DNA from: Dehalococcoidia bacterium
Lineage (GTDB): Bacteria > Chloroflexota > Dehalococcoidia > Lucifugimonadales > JAGWBF01
Length of the DNA stretch: 64,000 nt
Assembly (NCBI GenBank): GCA_965197405.1
Contig: OZ240206.1
Location: 1,408,179-1,472,178, forward strand
Reading direction: 5' to 3'
This document shows positions 41,088 through 57,819 of this stretch, piece after piece. Under the pieces are notes generated by a model. That model saw only the letters and a program-made list of their open reading frames with translations, had not been told where the DNA came from and ran no database searches. Position 1 is the stretch's first letter. Each line of letters starts with the position of its first letter. A program made the translations under genes and the position numbers.

Positions 41088-41183
41088 GGTAAGACTCCGA
41101 AAATGGACTTGCTACTAGACGTTAAGCTATGAGAAGCTATCACACATGCCTCAGGCTGTCAAGGGAACCATCATGCCGCAACT

Positions 41184-41270: not shown

Positions 41271-41397
41271 ATAAGGGTTGAATGTAAGCTTGCCATCGTA
41301 TGGGGCTGCGAGTATCATATAGCCGACGTTACTCTTGCATTTTGCAATTAACTCCTGTGTCCGGCATTCTACCGGGGGCCGCTGGAAGGATGAGGCT

Positions 41398-42342
41398 ATG
41401 ACCAACAAGCGACGGGATATTTCCCACGTGTATGCCGGCAACCCGCTGGACAGGGGTGACCGCGAGCGCCGTGATGAAAAGTGGCTCAGCGATAAAGCCA
41501 GGGACCCCGGAAGCAGGTTCCTGCCGCTGTGGGACCTGAACGTTCTCGTATCCGAAGAGCCAGGGCATGGCCTGGGGTGGCTGGACGTAGCCGACTTGGA
41601 CCGGCTCGGCATCGAGACTGCCCCGATATTTTTGGGGCTGCAGGGCCAGGCGACCTTTTTCGCCGTAGACGTATCCAAGAATGACCTCGCAGTCCAGGAG
41701 CTGCGTGAGAGCGGGAGATGGAGGTTCCAGGATGCCAGGTCCGTTACAGAGGTGCTCAGCGGGCCGGACTCCGGGATAGTCGCACAGGCGCGGTCGCAGG
41801 TCAACTGGCATAGCCGCAACGGGTTTTGCTCTATGTGCGGGCACGAGACCTCGGTGAGACGCGGGGGGCAGGTGCGGTACTGCTCCAAATGCGATACGGA
41901 GCACTTCCCACGCACCGACCCCGTGGTTATCACCCTGGTGTCCCATGAAGACCGCTGCCTGCTGGGCCAGTCCCGCGGGCGGCTCTACGGCATGAAGATG
42001 TACTCCGCCCTGGCCGGATTCGTGGACCAGGGGGAATCAATCGAGGAAGCCGTGACCAGAGAAATAATGGAGGAGGCGGGAATCAAGATAAAGAATATCC
42101 GTTACCACTCCTCCCAACCCTGGCCATTTCCCTGGTCGCTCATGATAGGCTGCCATGCCGATGCGGTGACGACGGATATTTCAATGGACGTCGAGGAGAT
42201 GGCTGACGTGCGCTGGTTCCAGCAGGAGGAGGTCCTCCTGGCCCTGGAAGGAAAGAGTGAAGAGCTAATGGTCCCCGGACGGATTGCCATCGCCCACCAC
42301 TTGATTAAAGCCTGGGCAACCGGGACCATTGACGGCTCGTAG
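41398..42342 (+). CDS. nudC: NAD(+) diphosphatase (NADH pyrophosphatase)
   Basis: Zinc ribbon 'CSMCGHETSVRRGGQVRYCSKC', Nudix box 'GFVDQGESIEEAVTREIMEEAGI' and NudC signature 'SQPWPFPWS'. ATG at 41398 preferred. Confidence 0.85.
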   Translation: MTNKRRDISHVYAGNPLDRGDRERRDEKWLSDKARDPGSRFLPLWDLNVLVSEEPGHGLGWLDVADLDRLGIETAPIFLGLQGQATFFAVDVSKNDLAVQELRESGRWRFQDARSVTEVLSGPDSGIVAQARSQVNWHSRNGFCSMCGHETSVRRGGQVRYCSKCDTEHFPRTDPVVITLVSHEDRCLLGQSRGRLYGMKMYSALAGFVDQGESIEEAVTREIMEEAGIKIKNIRYHSSQPWPFPWSLMIGCHADAVTTDISMDVEEMADVRWFQQEEVLLALEGKSEELMVPGRIAIAHHLIKAWATGTIDGS

Positions 42343-42422
42343 CGCTGAACGCATCGGGTGTCCCTTTTTGATAGACGCCCGGGCAATAAATTACAATGAG
42401 AATAACCTGCATCCCCTCTGAT

Positions 42423-42517
42423 GTCATTCCGAGCGCAGCGAGGAATCTAAAAATCCACGCTCTCGGATAAGCCTGCGCTTGAGATTCCTCACTCCGCTTC
42501 GCTCCGTTCGGAATGAC
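42423..42517. repeat. MITE-like palindromic repeat, family 1, short copy
   Basis: 'gtcattccgagcgcagcgaggaatctaaaaatc...gagattcctcactccgcttcgctccgttcggaatgac'. Confidence 0.7.
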
Positions 42518-42622
42518 ATGGGGTAGGAGCCTGTATTACCTGAAAATAGTGGGGGCATCGCTCTTGATGTGGCCTGGCAAGGCCATCCACAGCTACAATG
42601 CAATAGCCGGTGAGGGTGAAGA

Positions 42623-42784
42623 ATGGCGAGAAGCAACTGGTACACCGAGCACCCCCCTGCATGTACTTGCTCTTTTTGCCAGGACAGGCGGACTATACTC
42701 CGCCAACAGGGTCGGAAGATAGGCCGGAACGAGAAGTGTCCCTGTGGAAGTGGCAAGAAGTACAAGAGATGTCACGGGGTATGA
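42623..42784 (+). CDS. small SEC-C motif protein (53 aa), below the ORF-track length cutoff
   Basis: My own translation: '[53 protein letters not shown]'. The C-terminal '[13 protein letters not shown]' is the SEC-C metal-binding motif. A purine-rich RBS lies upstream. Confidence 0.5.
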
Positions 42785-42857
42785 GGGGCCTTGCGGCGGT
42801 GCTATGTTTGCCCCGATAGCTCGATTGCTTGATCTACTTTGAGAAGGGGGTTCGAAG

Positions 42858-44585
42858 GTGGCAGAATATGACGTTCTCATAAAGGGAGGCACAATCGTTG
42901 ACGGGACCCGCACCCCCCGATATGTGGGGGATTTGGCCGTCAAGGACGGGAGAATCGCACAGATTGGCGGGCTGCGCGGCAGCCGGGCCGCCAAAGTGAT
43001 AGACGCGTCGGGGCTCGTGGTCGCCCCCGGCTTCGTGGACCTCCATACCCACTACGACGCTCAGATTCAGTGGGACCCATACTGCACCATGTCTTGCTGG
43101 CATGGCGTGACCTCCGTGGCCATCGGCAACTGCGGCTTCGGGTTCGCTCCCTGCCGCCCCGAGGACCAGCAGGCGGCGATGCTGTCGCTGACCCGCAACG
43201 AAGCCATACCCTTCGAGGCCATGGACGCCGGGATGCTGTGGGACTGGGTGACCTTCCCCGAGTTTCTCGATAGCCTCGATCGCGTTCCGAAGGGACTGAA
43301 CGTGCTCAGCTATGTCCCCCTGACGCCCCTGTACGTCTGGGTGATGGGCATGGAAGCGGCCAAGAGGAGGCGGCCAAACAGGGAGGAGATGAAGGAGATG
43401 GCCCGGCTGGTGCATGAAGGGATGGATGCCGGAGCATGTGGCTGGTCCGCCCAGGTCTTCGGCCCCAACTCCGCCCAGCGGGACTACGACGGTACGCCCA
43501 TGATCACGGACCTGATGACCCATGAGGAGATTCTTACCTTTGCCCAGGTGCTGGGCGAGCGGGACGAGGGCTTCATAGAGCTGGCCTACCAGGAGAATGA
43601 CAAAGAGGGCCGGCTTATGAGAGAGTCCACGTTCAAGCTCTTCGAGCGAGTGGCGGAGGTGAGCGGCCGGCCCGTCCTCTACCAGATTATCCAGGCCATC
43701 GCCGACGAGCCGGAGCACCACCGGGGGATAATTCGCTGGCTCGAGGACTGCAACCGGAGAGGTCTGAGGGTGTATGGACAGGGCGAGACACATAAGGGCG
43801 GCTTTGAGTTTACCCTGCGAGACTGGAACCTGTTCGACACCAGCCCGGCCTGGCGGGAGGTGACCGTTGGGACGCCCGAAGAGCGCAAGGAGAAGATGCA
43901 GGACCCGGAGCACCGGAGAAGGCTGCGCGCCGAGTGGGACAGTGGCGTTAAACCCGGACTAGGCGTCGTATCCGGGTCTCTGGAGGGCCTGGTTGTTGAG
44001 GAAGTGGGCCGGCGGGAGCTGGAGCGCTACGTGGGTCAAAGGGTTGGAGAGATTGCAGCCAGCGAGGGTAAGCACGTCGTTGACGCCGTGCTCGACATAG
44101 CGGTGGAGGACGACCTGCGGACCGAGTTCTACGCCCTGCACCTTCGCAACAATCCCCAGTATACCGGGGAGCTGGTGCAGTCGCCCTACGTGATTCCCGG
44201 CACGTCCGACGGAGGGGCGCACGTCAAGTTTGCCACCTTCGGACGGTTCCCGACGGAGATACTGGTCTGGCTGGTCCGGGATACGGAAGCAGTGAGCCTG
44301 GAGCAGGCACACTACGCCCTGAGCTACCTACCCGCCTTCTTCGGTGGGTTCCAGGACAGGGGATTCCTGCGTGAAGGCGCACCGGCGGATATAATCGTAT
44401 ACGACTTGGAGGGGCTGAAGATGCTTCCCAGCGAGGTTGTCCACGACTTCCCCGGCAATGCGTGGCGGCGGGTGCAGAGGGCCGAGGGATACCGCTGGAT
44501 TATGGTGAATGGCGAAGTGACCTTCGAGGATGGAAATCCAACGGGGGCGCTACCCGGCAGGCTCTTGCGCCACGGTCGCGGCTAG
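42858..44585 (+). CDS. N-acyl-D-amino-acid deacylase (D-aminoacylase) family amidohydrolase
   Basis: 'YDVLIKGGTIVDGTRTP...DGRIAQIG...IDASGLVVAPGFVDLHTHYD'. GTG start. Confidence 0.8.
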   Translation: MAEYDVLIKGGTIVDGTRTPRYVGDLAVKDGRIAQIGGLRGSRAAKVIDASGLVVAPGFVDLHTHYDAQIQWDPYCTMSCWHGVTSVAIGNCGFGFAPCRPEDQQAAMLSLTRNEAIPFEAMDAGMLWDWVTFPEFLDSLDRVPKGLNVLSYVPLTPLYVWVMGMEAAKRRRPNREEMKEMARLVHEGMDAGACGWSAQVFGPNSAQRDYDGTPMITDLMTHEEILTFAQVLGERDEGFIELAYQENDKEGRLMRESTFKLFERVAEVSGRPVLYQIIQAIADEPEHHRGIIRWLEDCNRRGLRVYGQGETHKGGFEFTLRDWNLFDTSPAWREVTVGTPEERKEKMQDPEHRRRLRAEWDSGVKPGLGVVSGSLEGLVVEEVGRRELERYVGQRVGEIAASEGKHVVDAVLDIAVEDDLRTEFYALHLRNNPQYTGELVQSPYVIPGTSDGGAHVKFATFGRFPTEILVWLVRDTEAVSLEQAHYALSYLPAFFGGFQDRGFLREGAPADIIVYDLEGLKMLPSEVVHDFPGNAWRRVQRAEGYRWIMVNGEVTFEDGNPTGALPGRLLRHGRG

Positions 44586-44600
44586 AAATATAGTTCGCTT

Positions 44601-44766
44601 CTTAGCAGGGTGGTTAAAAGGTCCCTTCTCTCCTGGCGGAAGAAGGTTAGAGCCTGCCCTGAGCCCAGCTGAAGAGATGCGGGGACGCCATCGCATCACC
44701 CTCACCTCAATCCTCTCCCGTCGAGGGAGAGGAAGTGTCCCCGTACCTTATTAGACACCCTCTTAG
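44601..44766. repeat. MITE-like repeat, family 2, longer copy with a ~75-nt internal insert
   Basis: Termini 'cttagcagggtgg' and 'gacaccctcttag'. The core 'tcctctcccgtcgagggagaggaagtg' is shared with 41184-41270. Confidence 0.55.
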
Positions 44767-44939
44767 ACGCTTTGGCCGCACGATTAGGGTGGCACGGCTA
44801 AACCGTCAGTCGTGTACCGTCACAGGGTCCCGTCACCACTCCCAAACCGGACTCGCTAGACTCCCGGCTTGGAAGTTACTAGCTATGATCGGTTCGCCCG
44901 GTTCGTAGTCGTTCCCCTATTCCTATCCCTACGTTTGTA

Positions 44940-44968
44940 TTGTACATTCGGATGAACATTGCTATAGT
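44940..44968 (+). promoter_or_regulatory. possible promoter of the type I R-M operon
   Basis: TTGTAC (44940-45), a 17-nt spacer containing the direct repeat ACATT...ACATT, then TATAGT (44963-68). GGGAGGAG RBS before GTG 45004. Confidence 0.35.
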
Positions 44969-45003
44969 CGAACCCCGTGCATTAATCCTGGGAGGAGCGG
45001 CCT

Positions 45004-45369
45004 GTGGTCAAGAGAGCGAGATTCGATCGCGACGCCTTTTACGCCGCCCTTGACGGGGAGAGGCAAGCACGCCAATGCACCTGGAGGCGAGTAGCTGAAG
45101 AAAGCGGGGTGAGCGCTTCCACACTGACTCGCATCTCTCAAGGCAAGCGGCCTGACGTGGACAGCCTTGCCGCCTTATCAGCCTGGTCAGGACTGGACGT
45201 AGACAGGTTCGTCAAAGGCGGTCCTTCCAGGAAGGAGCCGGAGCCTCTGGCGATGATTTCATCGTGCCTCCGGTCTGATCCTCGGTTGAATGAGAAGGCC
45301 GCCACTGCTCTGGACCAGATGGTGAAGGCAGCGTATAAGAGCATGAGCAGTCCAGAGAGAACTGTATGA
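45004..45369 (+). CDS. XRE-type HTH protein, possible controller of the R-M operon
   Basis: 'WRRVAEESGVSASTLTRISQGKRPDVDSLAALSAWSGLD'. Its stop overlaps the hsdM start (ATGA). Confidence 0.6.
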   Translation: MVKRARFDRDAFYAALDGERQARQCTWRRVAEESGVSASTLTRISQGKRPDVDSLAALSAWSGLDVDRFVKGGPSRKEPEPLAMISSCLRSDPRLNEKAATALDQMVKAAYKSMSSPERTV

Positions 45370-47330
45370 GCGCCCTTAACATCAGCAGCTTCATATGGGG
45401 CATCGCGGACGACGTTCTGCGCGATGTCTATGTCCGGGGCAAGTATCGCGACGTCATCCTGCCCATGACAGTCATCCGCCGCCTTGACGCGGTGCTGGAA
45501 CCGGCAAAGGAAGCGGTGCTCCGCATGAAGCAGCAGATGGACGCCGCCGGTATCACCAACCAGGACCGGGCGCTGCGCCAGGCCTCCGGCGAGGCCTTCT
45601 ACAACACCTCCTCCTTCCGGCTCCGTGACCTGACCTCTATCGGCCAGCAGCAGAGGCTCCGGGCCGACTTCGAGGCGTACCTCGACGGCTTCTCGCCCAA
45701 CATCCAGGAGGTCCTGGAGAAGTTCGAGTTCCGCAACCAGATTCCCAGGCTGGTCGAGACGCATGCGCTGGGGTTCCTGCTGGAGAAGTTCCTCGACAAG
45801 TCGATCAACCTCAGCCCCCGGCCCGTTCTGAACGGAGACGGCTCCGTGCGTCTGGAGGGCCTCGACAACCACGGCATGGGCACCGTCTTCGAAGAGCTCA
45901 TCCGGCGCTTCAACGAGGAGAACAACGAGGAGGCCGGGGAGCACTTCACCCCGCGCGACGTGGTGCAGCTCATGGCCCGCCTCGTCTTCCTGCCGGTTGC
46001 CGATGAGATCAGGCCCGCCACCTACCTGGTCTATGACGGCGCGTGTGGCACCGGCGGGATGCTGACGGTCGCGGAGGAGACGCTGACGCGGCTGGCCGGC
46101 GAGCAGGACAAGGAAGTGTCTGTCCACCTGTACGGCCAGGAGGTGAACCCTGAGACCTACGCCATCAGCAAGGCCGACCTCATCCTGAAGGGAGAAGGCG
46201 TCGAGGCTGACAATATGCAGTTCGGCTCCACCCTCTCCTCCGACGCCTTCCCAGCCCGAGAGTTCGACTTCATGCTCTCCAATCCGCCCTACGGCAAGAG
46301 TTGGAAGAGCGACCTGGAGCGCATGGGCGGCAAGTCCGGCATCACGGACCCGCGCTTCGTCGTGGAGCACGGCGGCAACCCGGAACACTCCCTCATCACT
46401 CGCTCCAGCGACGGCCAGATGATGTTCCTGGCAAACATGCTCAGCAAGATGAAGCACGACAACCAAATGGGCAGCCGCATCGCCGAGGTGCACAACGGCA
46501 GCTCCCTCTTCACCGGCGACGCCGGGCAGGGCGAGAGCAACATCCGCCGCTGGATCATCGAGAACGACTGGCTGGAGGCTATCGTTGCCCTGCCGCTCAA
46601 CATGTTCTACAACACCGGCATCGCCACCTACATCTGGGTGCTCAGCAACCGCAAGCCGGAGCATCGCCGGGGCCAGGTGCAGCTGATAGACGCCACCCAG
46701 TGGTACAGGCCGCTGCGCAAGAACCTGGGCAGCAAGAACTGCGAGTTGTCCGACGAGGACATCCGGCGCATCTGCGACGCTTTCCTCGCCTTCGAGGAGA
46801 CGGAGCAGTCGAAGATATTCCCCAACGAGGCCTTCGGCTACTGGAAGGTTACCGTGGAGCGCCCGTTGCGATTACACGGGATTGACCCTGAACGGGCCTA
46901 CACCGCCAAGGAGATCAAGACCCTCAGGGACGAGGCCGAGCGTTCGGAGACCGCGCCGCCTGTTATCAGGCGAGTCCACAAGACGGGCACACAGCCGGAC
47001 CCGCTTCGCGGCCTGTTCCCGGTTACGCTCGACGGCAGGGAAGCCGTGGTGGAGTATGAGCCGGACACCGACCTGCGTGACACCGAGCAGGTGCCGCTTC
47101 TCCACGAAGGCGGCACCGAAGCCTTCCTCCGCCGGGAGGTGCTTCCCTACGCCCCGGACGCCTGGTACGCCCCGGACAGCGTGAAGGTCGGCTACGAGAT
47201 CAGCTTCACCCGCCACTTCTACAAATCCCAACCGTTGCGACCCCTGGAGGAGATACGGGCCGACATCCTCGCGCTGGAGCGGGAGACGGAGGGGCTGCTG
47301 GCGGAGATTGTTGGAGATGGAAGACTGTGA
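45366..47330 (+). CDS. hsdM: type I restriction-modification methyltransferase subunit
   Basis: 'YDGACGTGGML' (motif I) and 'MLSNPPYGKSW' (motif IV). N-terminal HsdM helical domain. Confidence 0.9.
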   Translation: MSALNISSFIWGIADDVLRDVYVRGKYRDVILPMTVIRRLDAVLEPAKEAVLRMKQQMDAAGITNQDRALRQASGEAFYNTSSFRLRDLTSIGQQQRLRADFEAYLDGFSPNIQEVLEKFEFRNQIPRLVETHALGFLLEKFLDKSINLSPRPVLNGDGSVRLEGLDNHGMGTVFEELIRRFNEENNEEAGEHFTPRDVVQLMARLVFLPVADEIRPATYLVYDGACGTGGMLTVAEETLTRLAGEQDKEVSVHLYGQEVNPETYAISKADLILKGEGVEADNMQFGSTLSSDAFPAREFDFMLSNPPYGKSWKSDLERMGGKSGITDPRFVVEHGGNPEHSLITRSSDGQMMFLANMLSKMKHDNQMGSRIAEVHNGSSLFTGDAGQGESNIRRWIIENDWLEAIVALPLNMFYNTGIATYIWVLSNRKPEHRRGQVQLIDATQWYRPLRKNLGSKNCELSDEDIRRICDAFLAFEETEQSKIFPNEAFGYWKVTVERPLRLHGIDPERAYTAKEIKTLRDEAERSETAPPVIRRVHKTGTQPDPLRGLFPVTLDGREAVVEYEPDTDLRDTEQVPLLHEGGTEAFLRREVLPYAPDAWYAPDSVKVGYEISFTRHFYKSQPLRPLEEIRADILALERETEGLLAEIVGDGRL

Positions 47331-47373
47331 AGCGAGTGTTGCCAAAATGCACACATAGTGCGATAATAGTTAT

Positions 47374-47661
47374 GTGAACATTGCCTTTGACTGGAGCACT
47401 GAGAAGAACCGGCAACTCATTGAGCAGCGGGGAATTTCGTTTGAGGGCATCGTATCCGCCATAGAGCAAGGTGGGCTTCTGGATGTGCTGGAACACCTGA
47501 ACCAGGGCCGCTATCCGGGGCAACAGGTCTACGTTGTCGCAGTGCAGGAATACATTCACCTTGTGCCGTTCGTGATACAGGGAGACGGCGCCCGTTTTCT
47601 CAAGACGATTATCCCCAGCCGGAAGGCAACAAGAGATTATTGGAGGATGCGGCCATCATGA
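47374..47661 (+). CDS. brnT: BrnT-family (DUF497) toxin
   Basis: 'FDWSTEKNRQLIEQRGISFEGIV...IIPSRKATRDY'. GTG start. Confidence 0.65.
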   Translation: MNIAFDWSTEKNRQLIEQRGISFEGIVSAIEQGGLLDVLEHLNQGRYPGQQVYVVAVQEYIHLVPFVIQGDGARFLKTIIPSRKATRDYWRMRPS

Positions 47662-47933
47662 ACGATACAATGGACACGGAGGAGCGGGACATTCTGAGCC
47701 GATTTGAAATGGGCGAGTTGCGCCCGTCTCCCGACGCTACCCGTGAGATCAAGGCGGCGCAAGAAGCGGCGCGTAACACTTTCAACAAGACCCGGCGAGT
47801 AAACCTACGCGTAACCGAGCGCGACTATATGCTGGCGCATACGCGGGCCAGGGAAGAGGGGATACCCTACCAGACACTGCTGTCCAGCGTCATCCACAAG
47901 TACCTGTCGGGCAGATTGGCCGAGAAGGGGTAA
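47658..47933 (+). CDS. brnA: BrnA/CopG-like antitoxin
   Basis: 'VNLRVTERDYMLAHTRAREEGIPYQTLLSSVIHKYLSGRL'. The ATG overlaps the brnT stop (ATGA). Confidence 0.65.
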   Translation: MNDTMDTEERDILSRFEMGELRPSPDATREIKAAQEAARNTFNKTRRVNLRVTERDYMLAHTRAREEGIPYQTLLSSVIHKYLSGRLAEKG

Positions 47934-47935
47934 TG

Positions 47936-48046
47936 GGCATCCTGGCGCTGGAGCGGGAGACGGAGGGGCTGTTGGGGGAGATTGTGGGGGACCTCGACGG
48001 GCCTTCACGCAACAAAGACAAGTTTTACGGTAATGTGGTATGCTAG
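47936..48046 (+). repeat. relic second copy of the hsdM 3' end
   Basis: 47936-47995 aligns with 47261-47320 at roughly 50 of 57 positions by eye ('ILALERETEGLLGEIVGD' versus 'ILALERETEGLLAEIVGD'). It then continues to a TAG at 48044-46. Confidence 0.7.
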
Positions 48047-48066
48047 GCTCCTCAGGAGGGGATGCG

Positions 48067-49197
48067 ATGCCGAGCATAGAACTTTTGCGACCACACCTTC
48101 ACGGGGCGCGTTTCGAAAACGGTGAAATCCCTTTAGAAGTTCTCGGCGATCTGGCGGCTCTGCGAGAAATGGTCTTGGAAGTCGCAAAATGGAGGTTCCT
48201 CCAGGAACACCCCACCCGCCAACGTTCTCCACGTGGTTTCACAGATAATGTTGACTTGAAGCTCACTGGTTTGGAAAGGGGAAGCGCCATTCCGATAATT
48301 GGATTGTCAAGTCGACAACCTGCTTTGCCGGGAGTACAAGAGCCGTACCAAGAATACATTGAGCAAGCGATGAAGTGCATTATCAACGCTGTGGACTCGC
48401 CGGAGTCAGATGCCCTGTCAAGTGCGAACATTCAAATGCCGCGGAAGTACTTCGCTTATTTTGATAGAGTTGGGCGCAGCCTTCGCCAAGGCGAATCCAT
48501 TGAGTTTTGCTTCCCTTCAGGCAAAATATCAGCACAGCTTGACCAGGAAAAGCGGCGCAATTTGCTTGCGATTTCCCACATAAGAGAGCTTACATCAGAA
48601 GTGACTCTCCGCGGCTCCGTTAGCGAGATGGACCAGGACAGAATGACATTCGAGTTGCAACCTATTTATGGGCACAAGATAACCGGCCCTATACCCGAGC
48701 AGCATCGCGATGCCATCATGGAAGCATTGAACGGCTACTGGCATGGGGCACGGGTCATTGTCCAGGGCATCGGCAAGTACGACCGGAGAAACCGCCTGCT
48801 CAGTCTGGAATCCGTTGAGCAGATTGACGAGCTAGACCCGCTGGACGTGCCGGCGCAACTGGATGGCCTACGGGATATGCGAAACGGTTGGTATGAGGGG
48901 GAAGGCCTTGCCCTACCTCATTCGGGGCTCGATTGGCTGACCGGACGCTTTGAACGGTACTATCCCGACGACATGCCGTTGCCCTATGTTTACCCTACCT
49001 ACGAGGGAGGCATACGAATGGAATGGTCCCAGGGAGCTAATGCCATTATCCTTGAAATTGACCTGAATACCCACGTCGGGGAATGGCTCTGGTTCGACCG
49101 GGATTCTGATGCCGAGTACGAGAAGAGTTTAGCCCTAGACGATGCTACCGATTGGGTGTGGCTGGCCTCGGAAATCCGCAGCAAGGCGACGAGTTAA
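48067..49197 (+). CDS. unknown protein (376 aa) embedded in the R-M operon
   Basis: AGGAGG 7 nt upstream of ATG 48067. No motif I recognise. AT-richer than the hsd genes. Confidence 0.6.
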   Translation: MPSIELLRPHLHGARFENGEIPLEVLGDLAALREMVLEVAKWRFLQEHPTRQRSPRGFTDNVDLKLTGLERGSAIPIIGLSSRQPALPGVQEPYQEYIEQAMKCIINAVDSPESDALSSANIQMPRKYFAYFDRVGRSLRQGESIEFCFPSGKISAQLDQEKRRNLLAISHIRELTSEVTLRGSVSEMDQDRMTFELQPIYGHKITGPIPEQHRDAIMEALNGYWHGARVIVQGIGKYDRRNRLLSLESVEQIDELDPLDVPAQLDGLRDMRNGWYEGEGLALPHSGLDWLTGRFERYYPDDMPLPYVYPTYEGGIRMEWSQGANAIILEIDLNTHVGEWLWFDRDSDAEYEKSLALDDATDWVWLASEIRSKATS

Positions 49198-49199
49198 GC

Positions 49200-49574
49200 A
49201 TGAACCCCAGCACATTGCTCTACCGGCAAGTCAATCCCCAATGGATACGTAACGGTAAAGTTAACTCGCAAACATTCTTACCAACAAGAAAAAATGAAGG
49301 TCTCCTGTCGGCCTACGACGGCGATCAAATTACACCGGAGAAGTCTTGGAGGCATTTCACTAATCATCTAGGCTTCCAGTCGGCCGGTGTAGTAGCCGTT
49401 ACTGTAGGAGAATGCCACGATCGGCAACTTCCAGTTAGATCGGACCCCTCACAGTTTCCTGAGCATGTCGTTGTAGATTTTACAGGGCTGAAAAAGAGCG
49501 CGATTGAACGAAGGGCTGATAGCCTCAAAACGTTTGCCAACGCCCGCGGCTGGCTATTTGGCCCGACGAGCTAG
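49200..49574 (+). CDS. unknown small protein (124 aa) embedded in the R-M operon
   Basis: Starts 3 nt after the previous stop and ends 2 nt before hsdS. Begins 'LYRQVNPQW...'. No confident family assignment. Confidence 0.55.
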   Translation: MNPSTLLYRQVNPQWIRNGKVNSQTFLPTRKNEGLLSAYDGDQITPEKSWRHFTNHLGFQSAGVVAVTVGECHDRQLPVRSDPSQFPEHVVVDFTGLKKSAIERRADSLKTFANARGWLFGPTS

Positions 49575-49576
49575 CC

Positions 49577-51068
49577 ATGACAACCACTAGCCAAGAAACC
49601 GGTCCGGGCGTTTGCCCCACCCTCCACCCCCATCCCGTCTACAAGCCCTCCGGCGTCCCCTGGCTCGGCGACGTGCCGGAGCATTGGGACGTGAGGCGGG
49701 GCAAGGCGATGTTGCGGCCCGTTGATGTTCGCTCCGAGACAGGGGATGAGGAGTTGCTGACGGTCTCTGCCCATCGGGGTGTTGTTCCAAGGAAGTCTGC
49801 CAACGTAACTATGTTCAAGGCAGAATCATATGTTGGCTACAAGCTGTGTTGGCCAGGAGACCTGGTTATCAATAGTCTTTAGGGCGTGGGCGCACGGCTT
49901 GGGCGTTTCGCAGCACCACGGCATCGTTAGCTCAGCATATGGTGTCTATCGCCCATTGTCGAAAGCCCACGCTCGGTTCATCCATCTGCTAGTGCGTTCA
50001 GTCCCCTTCCAGTGGGAGTTGCAAGTCCGCTCCAAGGGCATATGGGTGTCGCGTCTTCAGTTGACCGACGAGGCATTTCTTGGAGCGCCGTTCCCCCTCC
50101 CCCCACTCCCCGAGCAGGCGGCCATCGTCCGCTACCTGGACTACGTGGACCGGCGCATCCGGCGGTACGTCGGCGCCAAGCGAAAGCTCATCGCCCTGCT
50201 GGAGGAGGAGAAGCAGGCCATTGTCAACCAGGCCGTCACCCGTGGCTTCGACCCCAACGTCCGCTTCAAGCCCTCCGGCGTCGAGTGGCTCGGAGACGTG
50301 CCGGAGCATTGGGAGGTGCGACGGCTGCGGACCGTTGCCGACATGCGTGTCAGCAACGTGGACAAGCACACTAGAGAAGATGAGGTTCCCGTTCGCCTCT
50401 GCAACTACGTCGATGTCTACAAGAACGACCGTATCACGTTGGCCATGCCTTTTATGGCAGCGACGGCCTCGCGGGACGAGATTGAGCGATTCCGGCTAGA
50501 GTCAGGTGATGTCCTCATCACCAAAGACTCCGAGACCTGGGACGACATTGGAGTCTCGGCCTTGGTAGCGGAGTCGGCCCATGACCTTCTCTCTGGCTAC
50601 CATCTGGCCTTGCTCCGGCCAACGAACGAGATACTGGGGTCATATCTGGCCCGAACCTTGCAGAGCAAGGGGGTGGCCTACCAGTTTCACGTAAGGGCGA
50701 ATGGCGTGACGCGATACGGCCTCACTCACAACGGCATTCAATCGGTTTGCCTACCACTGCCACCCCTCGCCGAACAAACCGTCATTGCCGCGTACCTGGA
50801 CAAGGCCACCGCCACCATAGACGCCGCCATCGCCCGTGCCCGCCGCCAGGTCGAGCTGGTCCAGGAATACCGCACGCGCCTCATCGCCGACGTGGTTACG
50901 GGCAATCTGGACGTGCGCGAGGCGGCGGCCCAGTTGCCCGATGAAGCCGGCGAGGAGCATCCAATCGAAGAAGGCTATATGCTGACAGGTAGCCTGGACA
51001 ATAACTCCTACATCTCCGACGAGTCGTTGGGAGAAGAACTAGCAATGGAAAGCGAGGTGACGGCATGA
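49577..51068 (+). pseudogene. hsdS: type I R-M specificity subunit, interrupted by a frameshift near 49870-49882
   Basis: Two half-TRD repeats, each introduced by 'KPSGV(P/E)WLGDVPEHW(D/E)VRR'. Conserved 'PLPPL(P/A)EQ' spacers. 'GDLVINSL*' in one frame continues as 'RAWAHGLGVSQHHGIVSSAYGVYR' in another. Confidence 0.8.
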
Positions 51069-51304
51069 CGGACTGGAGCAAGTGCCCGGCGGTGGAAAGC
51101 GTGCCCGGCAGGGTGAGCGGCAATTGGGTGTTCAAGGGCACACGTTTGCCGGTCTACGCTCTCTTCGAGAATCTGGCCGGGGGCGCTACCATCTACGACT
51201 TCATCGAATGGTTTGAAGGCGCAGAGGAATCAGACCTGAAGGCAGTGTTGGAGCATGTCGCCCAGGACCTCCGGGCCAAGGTAAGCCATGAGAATCTTGT
51301 TTGA
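51065..51304 (+). CDS. DUF433-family protein (antitoxin-like)
   Basis: 'GNWVFKGTRLPVYALFENLAGGATIYDFIEWF'. The start overlaps the hsdS stop (ATGA). Confidence 0.65.
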   Translation: MTDWSKCPAVESVPGRVSGNWVFKGTRLPVYALFENLAGGATIYDFIEWFEGAEESDLKAVLEHVAQDLRAKVSHENLV

Positions 51305-51623
51305 CAACGGGTCACCCAGGCCGTTGCGCCACCGGCTCTTCGGACACCAGGTCGAGACGGCCAGAGAACGCGGCTGGGGCACCTTAGCCAACGGCGTCCT
51401 GCTGAGCCAGGCCGAGGAAGCCGGTTTTGAAGTTCTGCTCACCACTGACCAAGGCATCCGATACCAACAAAATATGGCCAACCGGCAAATAGCCGTAGTC
51501 GTCCTGATGAACACTGCTTGGCCCCGCATTTCGCGGCGAGCGGAGGCTATCCGCAACGCCATCGAGGGGATGCAGCCCGGTGAAGTGCGGGAAGTCCACA
51601 TCCCGATGAGAGGCGAGGCATAG
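51288..51623 (+). CDS. DUF5615/Mut7-C PIN-like protein (toxin-like)
   Basis: 'MRILFDNGSPRPLRHRL...EVLLTTDQGIRYQQN'. Overlaps the DUF433 gene by 17 nt. Confidence 0.6.
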   Translation: MRILFDNGSPRPLRHRLFGHQVETARERGWGTLANGVLLSQAEEAGFEVLLTTDQGIRYQQNMANRQIAVVVLMNTAWPRISRRAEAIRNAIEGMQPGEVREVHIPMRGEA

Positions 51624-51624
51624 C

Positions 51625-54600
51625 GTGACCACCGACACCAGCGAGAAGGGCCTTGAGCGCCTCATCTGCACCGCGCTCACGGGCGCGCCCTGCGACCCAC
51701 CGCAGGGCGGCATTGTGCGCGAGCGGCCCGCCGGCTACGGCGCCGGCTGGATTTGCGAAGATTCGCAGGACTACGACCGGGAGTACTGCGTAGACCTGGC
51801 CCAGCTCTCCGCCTTCCTCCATGCCACCCAGCCCAACGCCGCCGAATCGCTGGGCCTCGGCCAGGACAGCCCGACGCGGCGCAAGTTCCTGGCCCGGCTG
51901 CAAGGGGAAATCACCCGGCGAGGGACCATTGACGTGCTCCGCAAGGGCGTCAAGCACGGGCCGCACCAGATCGACCTGCTCTACGGGACACCGTCGCCGG
52001 GGAACGAAAAGGCCAGGGTCCAGTACGGGCAGAACCGCTTCAGCGTGACGAGGCAGCTCCACTACAGCCGGGACCAGGCCCAGCTTGCCCTGGACCTGTG
52101 CCTGTTCATCAACGGCCTGCCCGTCGCCACCTTCGAGCTGAAGAACAGCCTGACCAAGCAGACGGTGGACGACGCCGTCGAGCAGTACAAGCGGGACCGA
52201 CACCCCAGTGAGAAGCTCTTCGAGCTTGGCCGCTGCCTTGTCCACTTCGCCGTGGACGACCACGAGGTGAAGTTCTGCACGCACCTAAAAGGCAAGGCGT
52301 CGTGGTTCCTGCCCTTCAACAAGGGGTGGAATGACGGCAAAGGCAACCCGGCGAACCCCAACGGCCTCAAGACCGACTACCTGTGGAAGCAAGTCCTCAC
52401 CCGCGACGGGCTCACCGACATCATCGAGAACTACGCTCAGATCGTGGAGACGAGGGACGACAAGACCGGACGCAAGAGGCGGGAGCAGATATGGCCTCGC
52501 TACCACCAGTTGGACGTGGTGCGCAGGCTGTTGGCCGACGCATCCGGTAGAGGAGTCGGCCCCAGGTATCTGGTCCAGCACTCGGCGGGCAGCGGCAAGT
52601 CCAACTCCATCGCGTGGCTGGCCCACCAGCTAATCGGGTTGGAGCAGGACGGCAAGGCGCTCTTCGATTCGGCCATCGTCGTCACGGACCGCAGGATATT
52701 GGACAAGCAGATACGGGACACCATCAAGCAGTTCGCCCAGGTCGGCTCCGTGGTGGGCCACGCCGAGGACTCCGGCCATCTCCGCACCCTGCTCCAGGAT
52801 GGCAAGCGGATCGTCATCACCACCGTCCAGAAGTTCCCCTTCATCCTGGACGCCATCGGCAACGAGCACCGGGGGCGCAAGTTCGCCATCATCATTGACG
52901 AGGCCCATTCGAGCCAGGGAGGGCGCACGTCGGCATCTGTATCCATGGCGCTGGGAGAGGCCGGTTCAGAGGGTGAAGAAGAGACCACGGAAGACAAGAT
53001 CAACCGGCTGATGGAGAGCAAGAAGCTGCTGCTCAACGCCAGCTACTTCGCCTTCACGGCCACCCCCAAGAACAAGACACTGGAGATCTTCGGCGACCCG
53101 TCGCCGGAGGGCGGGAACACCAGGCATCTCCCATTCCACGTCTACACCATGAAGCAGGCGATTCAGGAGGGGTTCATCATAGACGTGCTTGAGCACTACA
53201 CGCCGGTGGACAGCTACTACCGGCTCGTCAAGACGGTGGAGGGAGACCCGGAGTTCGACACCAAGCGGGCCGGGAAGAAGCTGCGGCGCTACGTGGAGGA
53301 CAACGAGCACGCCATCCGCCTCAAGGCGGAGATCATGGTGGACCACTTCCACGAGCAGGTGGCCGGCTTGCACAAAATTGGCGGGCAGGCGCGGGTCATG
53401 GTGGTCACGAGCAGCATCCAGCGGGCCATCAGCTACTTCTACGCCATCCGGGACTACCTGGCGGAGCGTAAGAGCCCCTACCGGGCCATCGCCGCCTTCT
53501 CCGGAGAGCACGAGTACGGCGGCGCGAAGGTCACGGAGGCATCCCTCAATGGCTTCTCGTCGAACCTGATCGCCGACAGGATTCAGGAAGACCCGTACCG
53601 CTTCCTGGTATGTGCCGACAAGTTCCAGACCGGCTACGACGAGCCTCTGCTGCACACGATGTACGTGGACAAGATCTTGTCTGGCGTCAAGGCTGTGCAA
53701 ACGCTGTCGCGTCTCAACCGAGCGCACCCCAAGAAGCACGACACCTTCGTGCTGGATTTCAACAACGACGCCGACACGATCCAGGACGCCTTCGCCGACT
53801 ACTACCGGACCACGGTCCTGGCGGAAGAGACCGACCCTGACAGGCTGCACGATCTCAAGGCGGCGCTTGATGGCTATCAGGTCTACGCCCCGGCGCAGTT
53901 GGACGAATTGGTGGAGCGGTACCTTTCGGGGGCCGACCGCGACCAACTCGACCCCATCCTGGACACCTGCGTCTCTGCCTATCGAGAGCAGCTGGACGAG
54001 GACGGTCAGGTGGACTTCAAGGGCAAGGCCAAGGCGTTCCTCCGGACTTACGGGTTCCTGGCCGCAATCCTGCCCTACGCCAACGCCGAGTGGGAGAAGC
54101 TCTCCATCTTCCTGACCTTCCTCGTTCCCAAGCTGCCTGCGCCCATCGAGGACGACTTGTCGAAGGGGATTCTGGAAGCCATCGACATGGACAGCTACCG
54201 GGTGGAGAAGCAGGCGGTGCGGGGCGTCCAGCTTCCCGACGAGGACGCCGAGATCGAGCCGGTATCCGCCAGCGGCGGCGGGCAGAAGCCGGAACCGGAG
54301 ATGGAGCGGCTCTCCAACATCATCAGGGAGTTCAACAACCAGTTCGGCAACATCGAGTGGAAGAACCAGGACAAGATCGAGAGGGTGATCACCGAAGAGC
54401 TGCCCGCCAAGGTTGCCGGGGACCGGGCGTACCGGAACGCCATGGCCAACTCCGACCGGCAGAACGCCCGGATTGAGCACGACAAGGCCCTGGAACGCGC
54501 CATGACCGACTATGTGGCAGACCCAATCGAGCTGTTCAAGCAGTTCAGCGACAACGATTTGTTCCGCCGGTGGCTTTCCGAGATAGTCTTCGCCGCTACA

Positions 54601-54651
54601 TACACCGAACCTGCCGCCACGACCAGCGCGTCAAGAAGTCTGGATGTCTGA
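51625..54651 (+). CDS. hsdR: type I restriction endonuclease subunit R
   Basis: 1008 aa. 'HSAGSGKSNSIAW' (motif I), 'IIIDEAHSSQ' (DEAH), 'FTATPK' and 'DKFQTGYDEPLLHTMYVDK'. GTG start 1 nt after the previous stop. Confidence 0.9.
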   Translation: MTTDTSEKGLERLICTALTGAPCDPPQGGIVRERPAGYGAGWICEDSQDYDREYCVDLAQLSAFLHATQPNAAESLGLGQDSPTRRKFLARLQGEITRRGTIDVLRKGVKHGPHQIDLLYGTPSPGNEKARVQYGQNRFSVTRQLHYSRDQAQLALDLCLFINGLPVATFELKNSLTKQTVDDAVEQYKRDRHPSEKLFELGRCLVHFAVDDHEVKFCTHLKGKASWFLPFNKGWNDGKGNPANPNGLKTDYLWKQVLTRDGLTDIIENYAQIVETRDDKTGRKRREQIWPRYHQLDVVRRLLADASGRGVGPRYLVQHSAGSGKSNSIAWLAHQLIGLEQDGKALFDSAIVVTDRRILDKQIRDTIKQFAQVGSVVGHAEDSGHLRTLLQDGKRIVITTVQKFPFILDAIGNEHRGRKFAIIIDEAHSSQGGRTSASVSMALGEAGSEGEEETTEDKINRLMESKKLLLNASYFAFTATPKNKTLEIFGDPSPEGGNTRHLPFHVYTMKQAIQEGFIIDVLEHYTPVDSYYRLVKTVEGDPEFDTKRAGKKLRRYVEDNEHAIRLKAEIMVDHFHEQVAGLHKIGGQARVMVVTSSIQRAISYFYAIRDYLAERKSPYRAIAAFSGEHEYGGAKVTEASLNGFSSNLIADRIQEDPYRFLVCADKFQTGYDEPLLHTMYVDKILSGVKAVQTLSRLNRAHPKKHDTFVLDFNNDADTIQDAFADYYRTTVLAEETDPDRLHDLKAALDGYQVYAPAQLDELVERYLSGADRDQLDPILDTCVSAYREQLDEDGQVDFKGKAKAFLRTYGFLAAILPYANAEWEKLSIFLTFLVPKLPAPIEDDLSKGILEAIDMDSYRVEKQAVRGVQLPDEDAEIEPVSASGGGQKPEPEMERLSNIIREFNNQFGNIEWKNQDKIERVITEELPAKVAGDRAYRNAMANSDRQNARIEHDKALERAMTDYVADPIELFKQFSDNDLFRRWLSEIVFAATYTEPAATTSASRSLDV

Positions 54652-54670
54652 TAGAAGCTGGGGACTGCTA

Positions 54671-55915
54671 GTAGTCAGTCAAATCTGTTTTTGATGGTAG
54701 TTTAAAGAGTCTGAACCAAGGCGCTATACTGAGCAACAGACTGGGTTGAAGTGAGGTGGTGGTATGGTCAGGGAAAAGTACGGAGTCAGGTTGACGCCGG
54801 AGCAGCGGAACCAACTGGAACACTTGGTTCGGGCTGGTAAAAGTACCGCCCGGGTGACTATTCGGGCGCGGATACTGCTCAAGACCGATGCAGGTTGGTC
54901 TGCGCCCCGGGTGGCGCAAGCCTTGGATGTGGTCGAGGGCACGGTGTTCCGCGTCAAGCGCCGCTTTGCCGAAGCTGGGTTGGCTGGGGCGCTGCAAGAC
55001 CGGGTCCAAGCGAACGGGTACCGGAAGCTGGAGGACCTGGGCGAAGCCCACCCCGTATCCAGTACGGGGCAGGCTCTGATTGCCTTGGCCTGTAGCCCAG
55101 CGCCGGAAGGACATGACCATTGGACCCTGCGCTTGCTGGCGGGCAAAGTGGTGGAGTTGGGGTTGGCGTCATCCTTGTCCCACGAGACGGTGCGCCAGCG
55201 GCTCAAAAAAACGTCCTTAAGCCGTGGCAGAAGCAGGAGTGGTGCATCCCCGAGGTAAGCGCCGACTTCGTGGCCCACATGGAGGACGTCCTGGATTTGT
55301 ACGCCGAACCCTATGACCCGCAACGGCCGGTGGTCTGCTTTGATGAGACCTCCACCCAGTTGTTAGCCGAGACGCGGCCCTCTCTCCCTGCCGAGCCGGG
55401 GCGTCCGCTGCGTCGGGACTACGAGTACCGGCGGGAGGGAACCCGCAACCTGTTCGTGGCCTGTGAGCCCCTGGCTGGCTGGCGGCAGGTGGCGGTGACC
55501 GAACGGCGCACCATGCAGGACTTCGCCCACCAGATGCGCTGGCTGGTGGATGAGGCCTACCCGGAGGTCGAGGTGGTGCGGGTGGTGCTGGACAACCTGA
55601 ACACCCATCGCCTCGCTTCGTTGTACGAGACCTTCCCCGCGCCGGAAGCCCGGCGGATAGCTAAACGGCTGGAGTTCCACTATACGCCCAAGCACGGCAG
55701 TTGGCTGAACATGGCGGAGATCGAGTTCAGCGTGCTATCCCGCTCCTGTCTGAAGCAGCGGCTCCCCGACGCAGAATCGCTCCAACGGGAAGTCGGGGCC
55801 TCGGTGCAGGAGCGAAACGAGGCGCGGGTCACCATCAACTGGCGGTTCAAGACTCAGGATGCCCGAACCAAATTACACCGCCTCTATCCCTTCGATCCCA
55901 AACATGACTGACTAC
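54671..55915 (+). mobile_element. IS630-family element (type C), copy 2, flanked by TA, inverted relative to copy 1
   Basis: Same termini as 17912-19156. The translated ORFs differ from copy 1 at only 4 residues. Confidence 0.85.
54764..55911 (+). CDS. IS630-family transposase, orfA (54764-55258) + orfB (55120-55911), A7 slippery run at 55205-55211
   Basis: Same as copy 1. Confidence 0.85.
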
Positions 55916-56223: not shown

Positions 56224-56562
56224 ATGCGAACCCTGACATATCTGTTCATCGGCATTATCGTACTCATAAGCGGGTTGGCCTGCGCTGCTGAAGAGGAACC
56301 CGATGTAATTCCGTCCGCTGCCACACCCTCACCAACCGGTGCTTCCACGCCAACAGCTACCCCTATATTGGCACTTGCTCCAACGGCAACTCCAGAGCAA
56401 AACGCTACTCCTACGTCTGTACCTCCGACAGCCTCACTAGAGCCTACATCTACCTCGGAGCCTGCCGGAACGCCTACTCCAACTCTTACACCAGAGCCTA
56501 CTCTGCAATCTACTCCCAGGCCAACGGCTACTCCTACGTCTGTACCTCCGATAGCCACACTA
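56224..56562 (+). pseudogene. Pro/Thr-rich lipoprotein, 3' end truncated by an IS630-type insertion
   Basis: 'MRTLTYLFIGIIVLISGLAC' signal plus lipobox, followed by PT-rich low-complexity sequence. The IS terminal sequence begins at 56563. Confidence 0.55.
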
Positions 56563-57819
56563 GTACCATTTCCAGATAGATTTACAAGGATATGAGAAGG
56601 CAGCCATACTTGGGTATGATCTTTCTGTGAGGGAGTATCCAGACATGGCTGCCATCAAGTATAAAGTCAAGCTGGCTGAATCCGAACGATTCCGTCTCAA
56701 TGAGGTTTCCCACCGGGGCAAGCCGTCAGTCCGCACCGTCAAGCGGGCGCTGGCGCTGCTCAAAGCGGATGAAGGACTTCGGGACGCTGAGATAGCCGGT
56801 GTGCTTTTGATCAATGCCGCCACCGTTGCCAGAGTGCGGAAGCGGTACGTCGAGGAAGGAGTTGAGGCCGCCATCAATGACAAGCCAAGGCCGGGCCGGG
56901 AGCGCAAGTTGGACGGCAAGCAGCAAGCGCACCCCGTATCCAGTACGGGGCAGGCTCTGGTTGCCATCGCGTGCAGCAGTCCACCCGAAGGACATGTGAG
57001 CTGGACGCTCCATCTGCTGGCGGACAAGGTGGTGGAGCTGGAGTTGGCCGGGAGCATCTCCCTTGAGACGGTGCGCCAGATACTCAAAAAAACGAACTCA
57101 AGCCGTGGAAGAAGAAAGAGTGGTGCATCCCCAAGGTGAGCGGGGAGTTCGTCGCCCGGATGGAGGATGTGGTGGACCTTTATCACGAAGAGTACGACCG
57201 GGAGCGTCCGGTGGCGTGTTTCGACGAGACCTCCAAGCAGTTGCTCGGGGACGTGAGGCCGCCCGTCAAAGCCAAGCCCGGACGGGTGGAGCGCTATGAC
57301 ACCGAGTACCAGCGAAACGGGACCCGGAACCTGTTCATGTTCTGTGAACCGAAGGGTGGGTGGAGGCACGTCGAGGTGACCGAGCGCCGGACTGCCGTGG
57401 ACTTCGCGCACCGGATGAAGTGGTTGGTGGACGAGGCATATCCTGACGCCACAGTGATCAGGCTGGTGCTGGACAATCTCAACACCCACAAGCCCGGCTC
57501 GCTCTACGAGGCATTTGGAGCGTCCGAGGCGCGCCGCATAGCCAAACGCCTGGAGTTTCACCACACACCCAATCACGGAAGCTGGCTGAACATGGCCGAG
57601 ATCGAGTTGAGCGTCTTCAGCAGGCAGTGTCTGGACCGCCGGACCGGCGATGAAGCGTTGCTGAGACGGGAGGTCGCGGCGCTCGAACGCGAGCGCAACG
57701 AGGCCGCCGCCATCATAGACTGGCGGTTCTCCACCCAGAGCCTGCCCTCGGCCACGACCGGGGGACGCTCGCAGCAAGCTCAAACATGTATATCCAATAG
57801 AATTAAATTGAAACGGTAC
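56563..57819 (+). mobile_element. IS630-family element (type B), copy 2, flanked by TA
   Basis: Ends 'gtaccatttccagatag...gaaacggtac', with TA at 56561-62 and 57820-21. Confidence 0.8.

Follow-up and report, generated by a model that had tools for sequence, protein, structure and literature searches.

A mobile type I restriction-modification operon of a Dehalococcoidia bacterium with three embedded two-gene cassettes of defence and toxin–antitoxin type

Why should a type I restriction-modification (R-M) operon carry six further genes, arranged in three pairs, between its own hsd genes? The question is raised by positions 45004–54651 of a 64,000-nt stretch of contig OZ240206.1 (positions 1,408,179 to 1,472,178; assembly GCA_965197405.1) from a Dehalococcoidia bacterium; this whole stretch is called the window, all coordinates are window positions unless a locus is named, and L numbers denote the homologous loci that were compared with it. 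The answer we favour, with a probability of roughly 75%, is that this is a mobile type I R-M operon (a helix-turn-helix (HTH) gene, hsdM, hsdS and hsdR) from a family whose hsdM–hsdS (M–S) and hsdS–hsdR (S–R) junctions habitually take up defence and toxin–antitoxin (TA) cassettes, that three such cassettes are present here, that they are swapped by recombination between hsd loci, and that the whole would provide a layered defence.

The ten genes form a single row on the + strand, as the list of open reading frames (ORFs) and the sequence at each junction bear out: HTH (45004–45369, 121 aa), hsdM (45366–47330, 654 aa), a brnT-like gene (47374–47661, 95 aa, GTG start), a brnA-like gene (47658–47933, 91 aa), the 376-aa gene PDC-M32A (48067–49197), the 124-aa gene PDC-M32B (49200–49574), hsdS (whole span 49577–51068, in two frames, 49577–49882 and 49881–51068), DUF433 (51065–51304, 79 aa), the PIN-like DUF5615 gene (51288–51623, 111 aa) and hsdR (51625–54651, 1008 aa, GTG start). 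The six cargo genes occupy two slots, hsdM–hsdS and hsdS–hsdR, and are embedded in the strict sense, being extra genes on the same strand between a system's own genes. An earlier sequence-only reading of the window had described the junctions as uniformly tight. Most are: the ATGA overlaps it named at HTH/hsdM, brnT/brnA and hsdS/DUF433 can all three be read in the sequence, DUF433 and DUF5615 overlap by 17 nt, and 1 nt separates the DUF5615 stop (51623) from the hsdR start (51625), as claimed. The small gaps said to surround the 376/124-aa pair hold on two sides (2 nt at 376/124 and 2 nt at 124/hsdS) but not on the third, where 133 nt lie between brnA and the 376-aa gene, and a further 43 nt separate hsdM from brnT. 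The central claim of three two-gene modules inside a type I R-M operon stands, and relatives confirm that the slots are genuine and recurrent. The description of the pairs as TA-like needs qualification: it fits the DUF433/PIN-like family and, below threshold, the BrnT/BrnA-like pair, while the third pair, which had been left as unknown, matches the models of the PADLOC candidate PDC-M32A/B.

Comparison with homologous hsd loci, which the same reading had suggested as a check, supports habitual cargo uptake. HsdM relatives were sought in one genome per species; more than 590 were found, and the best 80 (69–90% identity) were kept as loci, 65 of which have all three hsd genes. They come from Dehalococcoidia, Latescibacterota, Nitrospirales, Acidobacteriota, Planctomycetota, Proteobacteria and methanogenic archaea, and the order M…S…R is kept in all 80. 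With a slot taken as occupied when more than 300 nt separate the core genes, the M–S slot is filled in 58 of the 65 loci, the S–R slot in 51, both in 48 and neither in 4, counts that are approximate since they rest on tblastn boundaries and a crude ORF picker; at a threshold of more than 450 nt the figures become 54 (M–S), 47 (S–R) and 41 (both). The cargo of the window (2804 nt) is near the median of its relatives (2949 nt), and 11 of the 65 loci have at least six cargo ORFs, so that three modules are normal in this family. What fills the slots belongs mostly to known defence and TA families: GmrSD-like (HEC-05/06), ThsB-TIR, SIR2-HerA, DUF1016/YhcG, HicA, PIN, Fic and ApeA-HEPN genes in the M–S slot, and DUF433 (12) with DUF5615 (10), DarT/DarG, Schlafen-like, M78 peptidase plus HTH, DUF4411 and HEC-01 genes in the S–R slot.

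A further line of evidence is where the similarity between these loci begins and ends. At the DNA level, similarity of the window to the 80 loci starts at 44992, always stops at the hsdM 3′ end (47308–47317), and resumes only in the central conserved region of hsdS (≈50095–50327) and from ≈50755 onwards. No chromosomal flank synteny was found with the 80 genome loci, and only one further locus, L089, shares the flank of the window (40620–44767, at 98%). Because homology is confined to the operon and the flanks are not shared, the operon is the mobile unit and its interior is a mosaic.

L089, a sister haplotype, occupies the chromosomal site of the window operon and catches a cassette exchange. 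It has the HTH gene, hsdM, brnT and brnA (100% identical as protein), DUF433, PIN and most of hsdR, and in place of M32AB it carries a 171-aa gene with a DUF1828/PDC-M24B-like partner, followed by a different and intact allele of hsdS. Homology breaks exactly at 47992 and returns at 49618–49687, in the conserved 5′ part of hsdS. A third haplotype (L081), 98–99% identical, has the same M32AB (99%) and other target recognition domains (TRDs) in hsdS. The breakpoint at 47992 is also the end of a scar. A 54-nt segment of the hsdM 3′ end (47264–47317, + strand), coding for ILALERETEGLLAEIVGD, recurs as a direct repeat at 47938–47991 (+ strand, 91% identical), and this second, non-coding copy opens the 133-nt gap after brnA, at the boundary of the brnTA and M32AB cassettes. 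Such hsdM-3′ scars, which range in length from 20 to 200 nt, likewise separate stacked cassettes in L003, L006, L023 and L036; in L006 they flank a DUF433/PIN pair in the M–S slot, and in L085 and L086 one lies directly upstream of M32A, L085 having DUF433/PIN plus M32AB in one slot.

We infer from this pattern that hsd loci exchange cassettes, often along with TRDs, by recombination anchored in conserved gene ends, and that stacking leaves a scar. As no recombinase gene is involved and the scars measure 20–200 nt, such recombination would be homologous or illegitimate rather than site-specific. In the scheme we propose, DNA restriction by the R-M core would be the first layer, and the co-located toxin modules would serve as independent back-ups and/or as addiction modules that retain the island; cassettes would be gained or swapped between related hsd loci by way of the hsdM 3′ end and the conserved segments of hsdS, and the addition of a second cassette would leave a short hsdM-3′ scar, here that at 47938–47991.

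The R-M core was examined gene by gene. The first gene encodes an HTH_3/Xre-type regulator (Pfam HTH_3, 23.3 bits) that also stands upstream of hsdM in L001, L005, L008, L014 and L089 and is confined to the closest sub-clade. HsdM is an N6-adenine methyltransferase with an HsdM_N domain and with S-adenosylmethionine-binding and NPPY motifs (PF02384, 188.7 bits, 2e-55; PF12161, 74.9 bits, 1.2e-20; PADLOC MTase_I, 807 bits); the translation holds DGACGTGG and NPPY, and the nearest relatives in the PDB are type I M subunits. HsdR combines a PD-(D/E)xK nuclease with a superfamily 2 translocase motor (HSDR_N, SWI2_SNF2/ResIII and T1R_D3-like domains; TIGR00348, 2.1e-58), with ELK (nuclease) and DEAH motifs in the translation; its nearest solved relative is EcoR124 HsdR, a distant match, and close relatives align over the full length at 79–89% identity. 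Both genes are thus full length with their motifs present, in agreement with the sequence-only reading. Opposite hsdM and hsdR lie antisense ORFs at 45138–46664 (− strand, 508 aa) and 52966–54480 (− strand, 504 aa), which resemble the shadow ORFs commonly seen opposite GC-rich genes.

The exception is hsdS, which had been taken for one ORF and is in fact split by a +1 frameshift. Its 5′ part (49577–49882, frame 2, 101 codons, premature TAG at 49880–49882) corresponds to positions 5–87 of the PADLOC Specificity_I model; its 3′ part (49881–51068), in another frame, contains the rest of TRD1, the central conserved region, TRD2 and the distal conserved region (Specificity_I positions 102–445, 1.2e-87; PF01420), so that as written no single ORF holds both TRDs and the conserved regions. 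The lesion is an extra T in the run 49878–49880, and removal of one T restores a 496-aa HsdS of which residues 15–459 align with the intact proteins of L029 and L034. Because of this frameshift, the R-M core, read as it stands, has no specificity subunit and cannot recognise DNA. The lesion is recent or an assembly error; L081 cannot decide between the two, since its TRDs differ and its 1x assembly breaks frame at several points.

The two sister haplotypes have hsd lesions of their own. In L081, hsdR is split by a 3.7-kb insertion (L081 4729–8402; window hsdR ≈52312–52325), which encodes an IS1595-type transposase, a Bro-N protein and an N6_N4 methyltransferase fused to HNH, and at whose joint ≈13 nt of hsdR are duplicated. 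L089 has a 1-nt deletion in hsdM (G4 to G3) and an hsdR that is 3′-truncated, its 3′ end having been replaced. The structural lesions in the hsdR genes of L081 and L089 cannot be read errors; single-base lesions could be, and the sister contigs, at 1x coverage, show homopolymer indels. Between haplotypes, the ratio of non-synonymous to synonymous differences (pN/pS) is 0.14 for hsdM, 0.11–0.14 for hsdR, 0.04–0.07 for DUF433 and 0.24 for the PIN-like gene, values from which it follows that all four genes were constrained until recently.

Among the cargo, the DUF433/DUF5615 pair is the commonest in the loci of this hsdM family. The DUF433 protein (COG2442) is an antitoxin-type family member by its score (PF04255, 40.6 bits against a cut-off of 23.6). 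Its PIN-like partner is a putative DUF5615 protein (COG4634, Mut7-C group) that matches positions 1–94 of the 110 of PF18480 at 15.1 bits, below the cut-off of 23.8; ten orthologues in relatives pass that model (best 4.9e-16), the L081 copy is weak, and an alignment of 14 copies conserves D6, E43/E44 and D54. By tblastn, DUF433 is present in 25 of the 80 related loci and the PIN-like partner in 17, most of them in the S–R slot. In the closest clade the pair is fixed and is co-inherited with the hsdS 3′ end and hsdR, over continuous DNA homology from 50755 to 54607; in L006, L011 and L085 it sits in the M–S slot. L005 has two DUF433/PIN pairs in tandem before hsdR (L005 13898–15115). Between haplotypes (L089, L081) the PIN-like gene at 51288–51623 is only 85.8% identical (pS 0.31), DUF433 and hsdR being 96–97% identical, which suggests that the toxin allele alone was replaced.

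COG4634 proteins are counted among the potential TA toxins, and Synechocystis VapBC10 (COG2442 + PIN) is a co-transcribed pair: its toxin, which ClpXP activates, is toxic to E. coli, and the DUF433 protein neutralises it (Ning et al. 2013, PMC3834315). DUF433 is paired with a PIN toxin there and with a predicted PIN-like one here, and by this analogy DUF433/DUF5615 is predicted to be a VapBC-type TA pair. The Synechocystis toxin is, however, a canonical PIN protein in a free-standing pair, whereas the toxin of the window is of the reduced, Mut7-C-like DUF5615 type and its pair is embedded in an hsd operon.

The brnT/brnA pair is a plausible BrnTA-like module rather than a confirmed member of that family. 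The BrnT-like protein matches nearly the whole of PF04365 BrnT_toxin (positions 1–75 of 77) at 24.3 bits, under the cut-off of 34.5, and has a weak full-length match to PDB 7vd7, a “toxin” (E 0.14); the BrnA-like protein, putatively of CopG/ribbon–helix–helix type, has a weak match to PF12441 CopG_antitoxin (E 0.022, relaxed Pfam scan). There are 1284 homologues of the latter at 75–100% identity, some labelled “antitoxin” by NCBI, in metagenome-assembled genomes of Chloroflexota, Gemmatimonadota and Acidobacteriota; so high a level of conservation is unusual in a small antitoxin and points to recent horizontal transfer on a wide scale. Small ORFs like the N-terminal 42 residues of the BrnA-like protein adjoin DUF433 and M32A in L085. 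In Brucella, brnT precedes brnA. The window pair has the toxin-like gene before the putative antitoxin gene, with an overlap between them as in the BrnTA type, and differs from the Brucella type in its embedding in an hsd operon and in a toxin that scores below the Pfam cut-off.

The third pair is PDC-M32: the 376-aa protein matches the PADLOC PDC-M32A model at 416.7 bits (1.8e-125) and the 124-aa protein the PDC-M32B model at 163.1 bits (9.4e-49), in adjoining genes spaced by 2 nt. PDC-M32 is a listed candidate (CAS_00128, count 98), one of 145 phage defence candidates taken from the embedded genes of BREX, DISARM and type I R-M loci (Payne et al. 2024, bioRxiv 10.1101/2024.01.29.577857). Homologues of A and B adjoin in L081, L083, L085, L086, L087 and L088 (tblastn), and in L084 only an 82-aa ORF, unconfirmed as M32B, follows M32A. 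Not all of these are in R-M operons: M32AB lies between pgi and glnS in L083, beside CBASS and type III R-M in L084, in an island with DndB, NYN, radical-SAM and NADAR genes in L087, and beside type II R-M in L088.

The M32A family has more than 466 homologues and no Pfam domain. An AlphaFold2 (AF2) model of the window protein (predicted local distance difference test (pLDDT) 87.5) has an N-terminal helical/β part, a barrel resembling the oligonucleotide/oligosaccharide-binding (OB) fold at ≈175–255, and a C-terminal α-β5-α domain at ≈257–376; against the PDB, Foldseek returns only local OB-fold matches for it (LysRS N-domain, eIF5A, IF1, RPA). M32B is a small α/β protein (AF2 pLDDT 96) with invariant R9, S37, Y39, D40, G41, H52 and H89, and an HMMER profile search of 1.8 billion representatives gave 1350 matches at E ≤ 1e-3; when fusions were sought among the best 150 of these 1350 cluster representatives, none turned up, almost all being stand-alone proteins of ≈125 aa that offer no clue from a joined domain. 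Sequence-profile searches of the PDB with M32A and M32B gave nothing below E ≈ 0.4, Foldseek searches with both AF2 models against the PDB and with M32B against BFVD gave no significant global match, and relaxed Pfam scans of the two proteins gave sub-threshold matches only. We do not claim M32B as an R-S-E ADP-ribosyltransferase, a reading considered for its invariant R/S/E-H residues, the only match being a non-significant one to AvrPphF ORF2 (E 0.27).

Truncated forms of M32A hint at how the two proteins may work together. Beside M32B, L036 retains 158 aa (equivalent to residues ≈257–372) and L086 retains 212 aa (148–370); since it is the C-terminal part that is kept beside M32B, the C-terminal domain appears, from the retained parts, to be the minimal partner of M32B. 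In L086 (4738–7508) two M32 modules stand in tandem, the first with the truncated M32A, with an hsdM-3′ scar between them. M32B, the presumed effector enzyme, may then be held in an inactive state by the M32A C-terminal domain, while the OB-containing part of M32A would sense a nucleic-acid cue. A more ambitious proposal, which we put forward only tentatively, joins this to the exchange described above: the conserved hsdM 3′ end and hsdS segments would be the homology arms of a recombinase-free cassette platform on which cassettes and TRDs are swapped and stacked, and PDC-M32 would be a new sensor–effector pair in which the C-terminal domain of M32A checks M32B and the OB-like part senses nucleic acid.

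How might ten such genes be expressed? A scan of 44400–55000 against a sigma-70-type consensus, which may not apply to this host, gave six promoter-like sites against 2.4 ± 1.5 in shuffled sequence. One at 44941–44968 (+ strand; TGTACA-16-TATAGT, TG-extended, 9/12), ≈36 nt upstream of HTH, is a candidate operon promoter, and the best of the scanned region is at 47339–47367 (+ strand; TTGCCA-17-GATAAT, TG-extended, 10/12), in the gap from hsdM to brnT; before M32A, AAGACA-18-TGgTATGCT can be picked out by eye and falls under the threshold of the tool. No operator-like inverted repeats were found near three of the promoter-like sites. The ATGA overlap with hsdS and the 1-nt gap to hsdR leave DUF433/DUF5615, a pair that we take to be translationally coupled, no room for a promoter of their own. 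Judging from these signals, the row is likely to be read as one long transcript that starts at the HTH promoter, and brnTA, perhaps M32AB too, would in addition have promoters of their own. The sequence-only reading had held that independently transcribed cargo at random genomic positions in relatives would tell against embedding, and something of the kind is seen: M32AB also occurs outside R-M loci, and brnTA lies behind a promoter-like site of its own.

Beyond the operon, an IS630-family transposase (54764–55911), encoded in two overlapping ORFs (HTH part 54764–55258, DDE_3 part 55120–55911), begins ≈110 nt past the hsdR stop; in L085 an HTH + DDE_3 transposase pair, with domains typical of IS630, adjoins hsdM. 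Further on are a 406-aa ORF without a Pfam match (56560–57783, − strand) and a 718-aa Helicase_C/RapA_C-like protein (57911–60070, − strand), which may belong to a wider defence island. A 980-bp element at 60078–61057 has a 99% identical copy in L089 (4135–5114, called there as DDE_Tnp_1 + DUF4096 genes), inserted just upstream of HTH at window 44760–44767 with an 8-bp overlap that is likely a target duplication. An Rfam scan of 40000–64000 gave no match.

That type I loci host embedded defence genes, as the sequence-only reading had stated, is documented (Payne 2024, Matelska 2017, and the cases of the enteropathogenic Escherichia coli (EPEC) RptR-RMS-DarTG island and of PrrC/EcoprrI), and the present locus is ordinary for its family. 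Defence systems embedded in type I R-M, BREX, DISARM and Hma have been catalogued (Payne, Hughes, Fineran, Jackson 2024, bioRxiv 10.1101/2024.01.29.577857), and as in those systems, the window has same-strand, non-hsd genes between hsd genes; it differs in its three stacked cassettes and in two TA-type pairs that fall outside the PADLOC models. The hsdM-3′ scars and the haplotype-level swap of the window and its relatives, of which the consulted sections and supplement text of that paper make no mention, are small additions to the known picture.

A close parallel is the experimentally active RRDM island of EPEC (RptR-HsdM-HsdS-DarT-DarG-HsdR-M48), whose hsdS–hsdR site its authors regard as a possible hotspot at which defence systems recombine (Zhang et al. 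2025, PMC12255303). Both loci have a small regulator directly upstream of hsdM and a TA pair between hsdS and hsdR, and the flanking of the whole EPEC island by insertion sequences (IS) is a further likeness; the DarTG slot is also filled by DarTG in several relatives of the window operon. They differ in the regulator, which in the window is the 121-aa Xre-type HTH protein (it was considered as an RptR homologue and rejected, the comparison showing none), and in the S–R cargo, DarTG in EPEC and DUF433/DUF5615 here; moreover, the window, known from its sequence alone, also fills the M–S slot, with two cassettes. PIN-like TA modules coupled to type I R-M subunits, in arrangements that vary between close relatives, are likewise on record, among them a Belliella baltica locus with DUF433-PIN_10, HsdM/HsdS and GmrSD (Matelska, Steczkiewicz, Ginalski 2017, PMC5499597). 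Like the window, that locus joins DUF433 and a Mut7-C-group PIN-like toxin to hsd genes in one operon, the toxin being PIN_10 there and of the COG4634/DUF5615 branch here, where hsdR is present as well; to such modules the window's hsdM family adds a DUF433/PIN pair recurring in 17–25 of 80 loci.

How far, then, should the reading of the locus as a mobile operon with layered defence be trusted? Several of the results weigh against it. As written, the frameshift in hsdS means that the R-M locus may be decaying rather than working, and the sister haplotypes are damaged too; the BrnT-like protein and the window copy of DUF5615 fall short of their Pfam cut-offs and the BrnA-like match is weak; PDC-M32 is a candidate defence pair by its genomic context, with no recognisable fold relatives; and the promoter-like sites and slot counts carry the reservations given with them. 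Pressed to its conclusion, the hsdS lesion would make R-M already dead, hsdS a pseudogene, and the operon a fossil whose remaining open frames are heading for loss. This is possible, though we doubt it: the independent structural hsdR lesions of L081 and L089 fit it, as do the IS630 element just past hsdR and the movement of IS copies about the locus, but the window has one lesion only, its hsdM and hsdR are otherwise sound, their pN/pS of 0.11–0.14 bespeaks constraint until very recently, and a one-base assembly error is possible in view of the homopolymer indels of the 1x sister contigs. Equally doubtful in our estimation is that the TA-type pairs are selfish, that is, addiction modules lodged in permissive, co-transcribed junctions, where they would stabilise the mobile operon but would neither act against phages themselves nor be functionally tied to restriction. 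COG2442/COG4634 and COG2929/COG3514 (the last two being the BrnT/BrnA COGs) are indeed generally abundant in sponge-symbiont genomes, and the names of several relatives point to such lineages; the BrnA-like family has its spread across phyla at high identity; an hsd gene is damaged in all three haplotypes, and the cargo ORFs are open in the window, as are those called in L089; and in the type I tvr locus of pneumococcus the Phd-Doc pair (tvrAT) acts in regulation, having given no addiction or defence phenotype. Against this, validated defence systems fill these slots in relatives (GmrSD-like HEC-05/06, HEC-01, DarTG, SIR2-HerA, ThsB), non-embedded M32AB sits in defence islands, and seven of the nine embedded candidates that were tested were active (Payne et al. 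2024, bioRxiv 10.1101/2024.01.29.577857).

The cassettes could, conversely, be integral to restriction. In the prr operon, prrC is located between hsdS and hsdR. EcoprrI-PrrC, a type IC R-M system with an embedded latent anticodon nuclease, is the classic guard (Loenen et al. 2014, PMC3874165) and the paradigm of a second, abortive layer tied to R-M status through a toxic effector gene within the hsd operon. On this model one or more cargo toxins, most plausibly that of DUF433/DUF5615, would be coupled physically or regulatorily to the R-M complex and unleashed when a phage inhibits restriction. The pair does lie in the hsdS–hsdR slot, as DarTG2 does in EPEC, and PrrC, which EcoprrI sequesters, is likewise encoded within the prr operon; the pair lacks room for a promoter of its own, is inherited in the closest clade along with hsdR and the 3′ end of hsdS, and recurs, mostly in that slot, in the 25 loci counted above. 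We nevertheless consider such a guard improbable. PrrC is a single ABC-ATPase/anticodon nuclease held latent by R-M, whereas each toxin of the window has a partner gene; DUF433/PIN, with its own antitoxin-type partner, is a self-sufficient TA system in Synechocystis; it also occurs in the M–S slot and as a tandem duplicate; and its toxin allele, at 85.8% identity against 96–97% for its neighbours, seems to have been replaced separately. No PrrC/RloC-type anticodon nuclease is recognised in the cargo, none of the six proteins matching a PrrC or ABC-ATPase model (PADLOC, Pfam), and the likeness of the window cargo to PrrC is positional only. The layered-defence reading, with cassettes that come and go between related hsd loci, remains the one we prefer.

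In essence, the locus offers a clean natural case in which PDC-M32 is exchanged for a PDC-M24-like cassette at the same site, with the hsdM 3′ end and hsdS as anchors and with scars that record earlier stacking. DUF433/DUF5615, as the commonest cargo of a widely transferred R-M family, is a good candidate for asking whether TA pairs in the S–R slot back up restriction, and for PDC-M32 there are now structural hints, M32A being modular with only its C-terminal domain always kept beside M32B. The exchange, the prevalence of DUF433/DUF5615 and the modularity of M32A give precise constructs for experiments. If the hsdM 3′ end and the conserved hsdS segments do act as the arms of a cassette platform, hosts of this hsdM lineage would be able to reshuffle their phage-defence content and their DNA specificity in one step.

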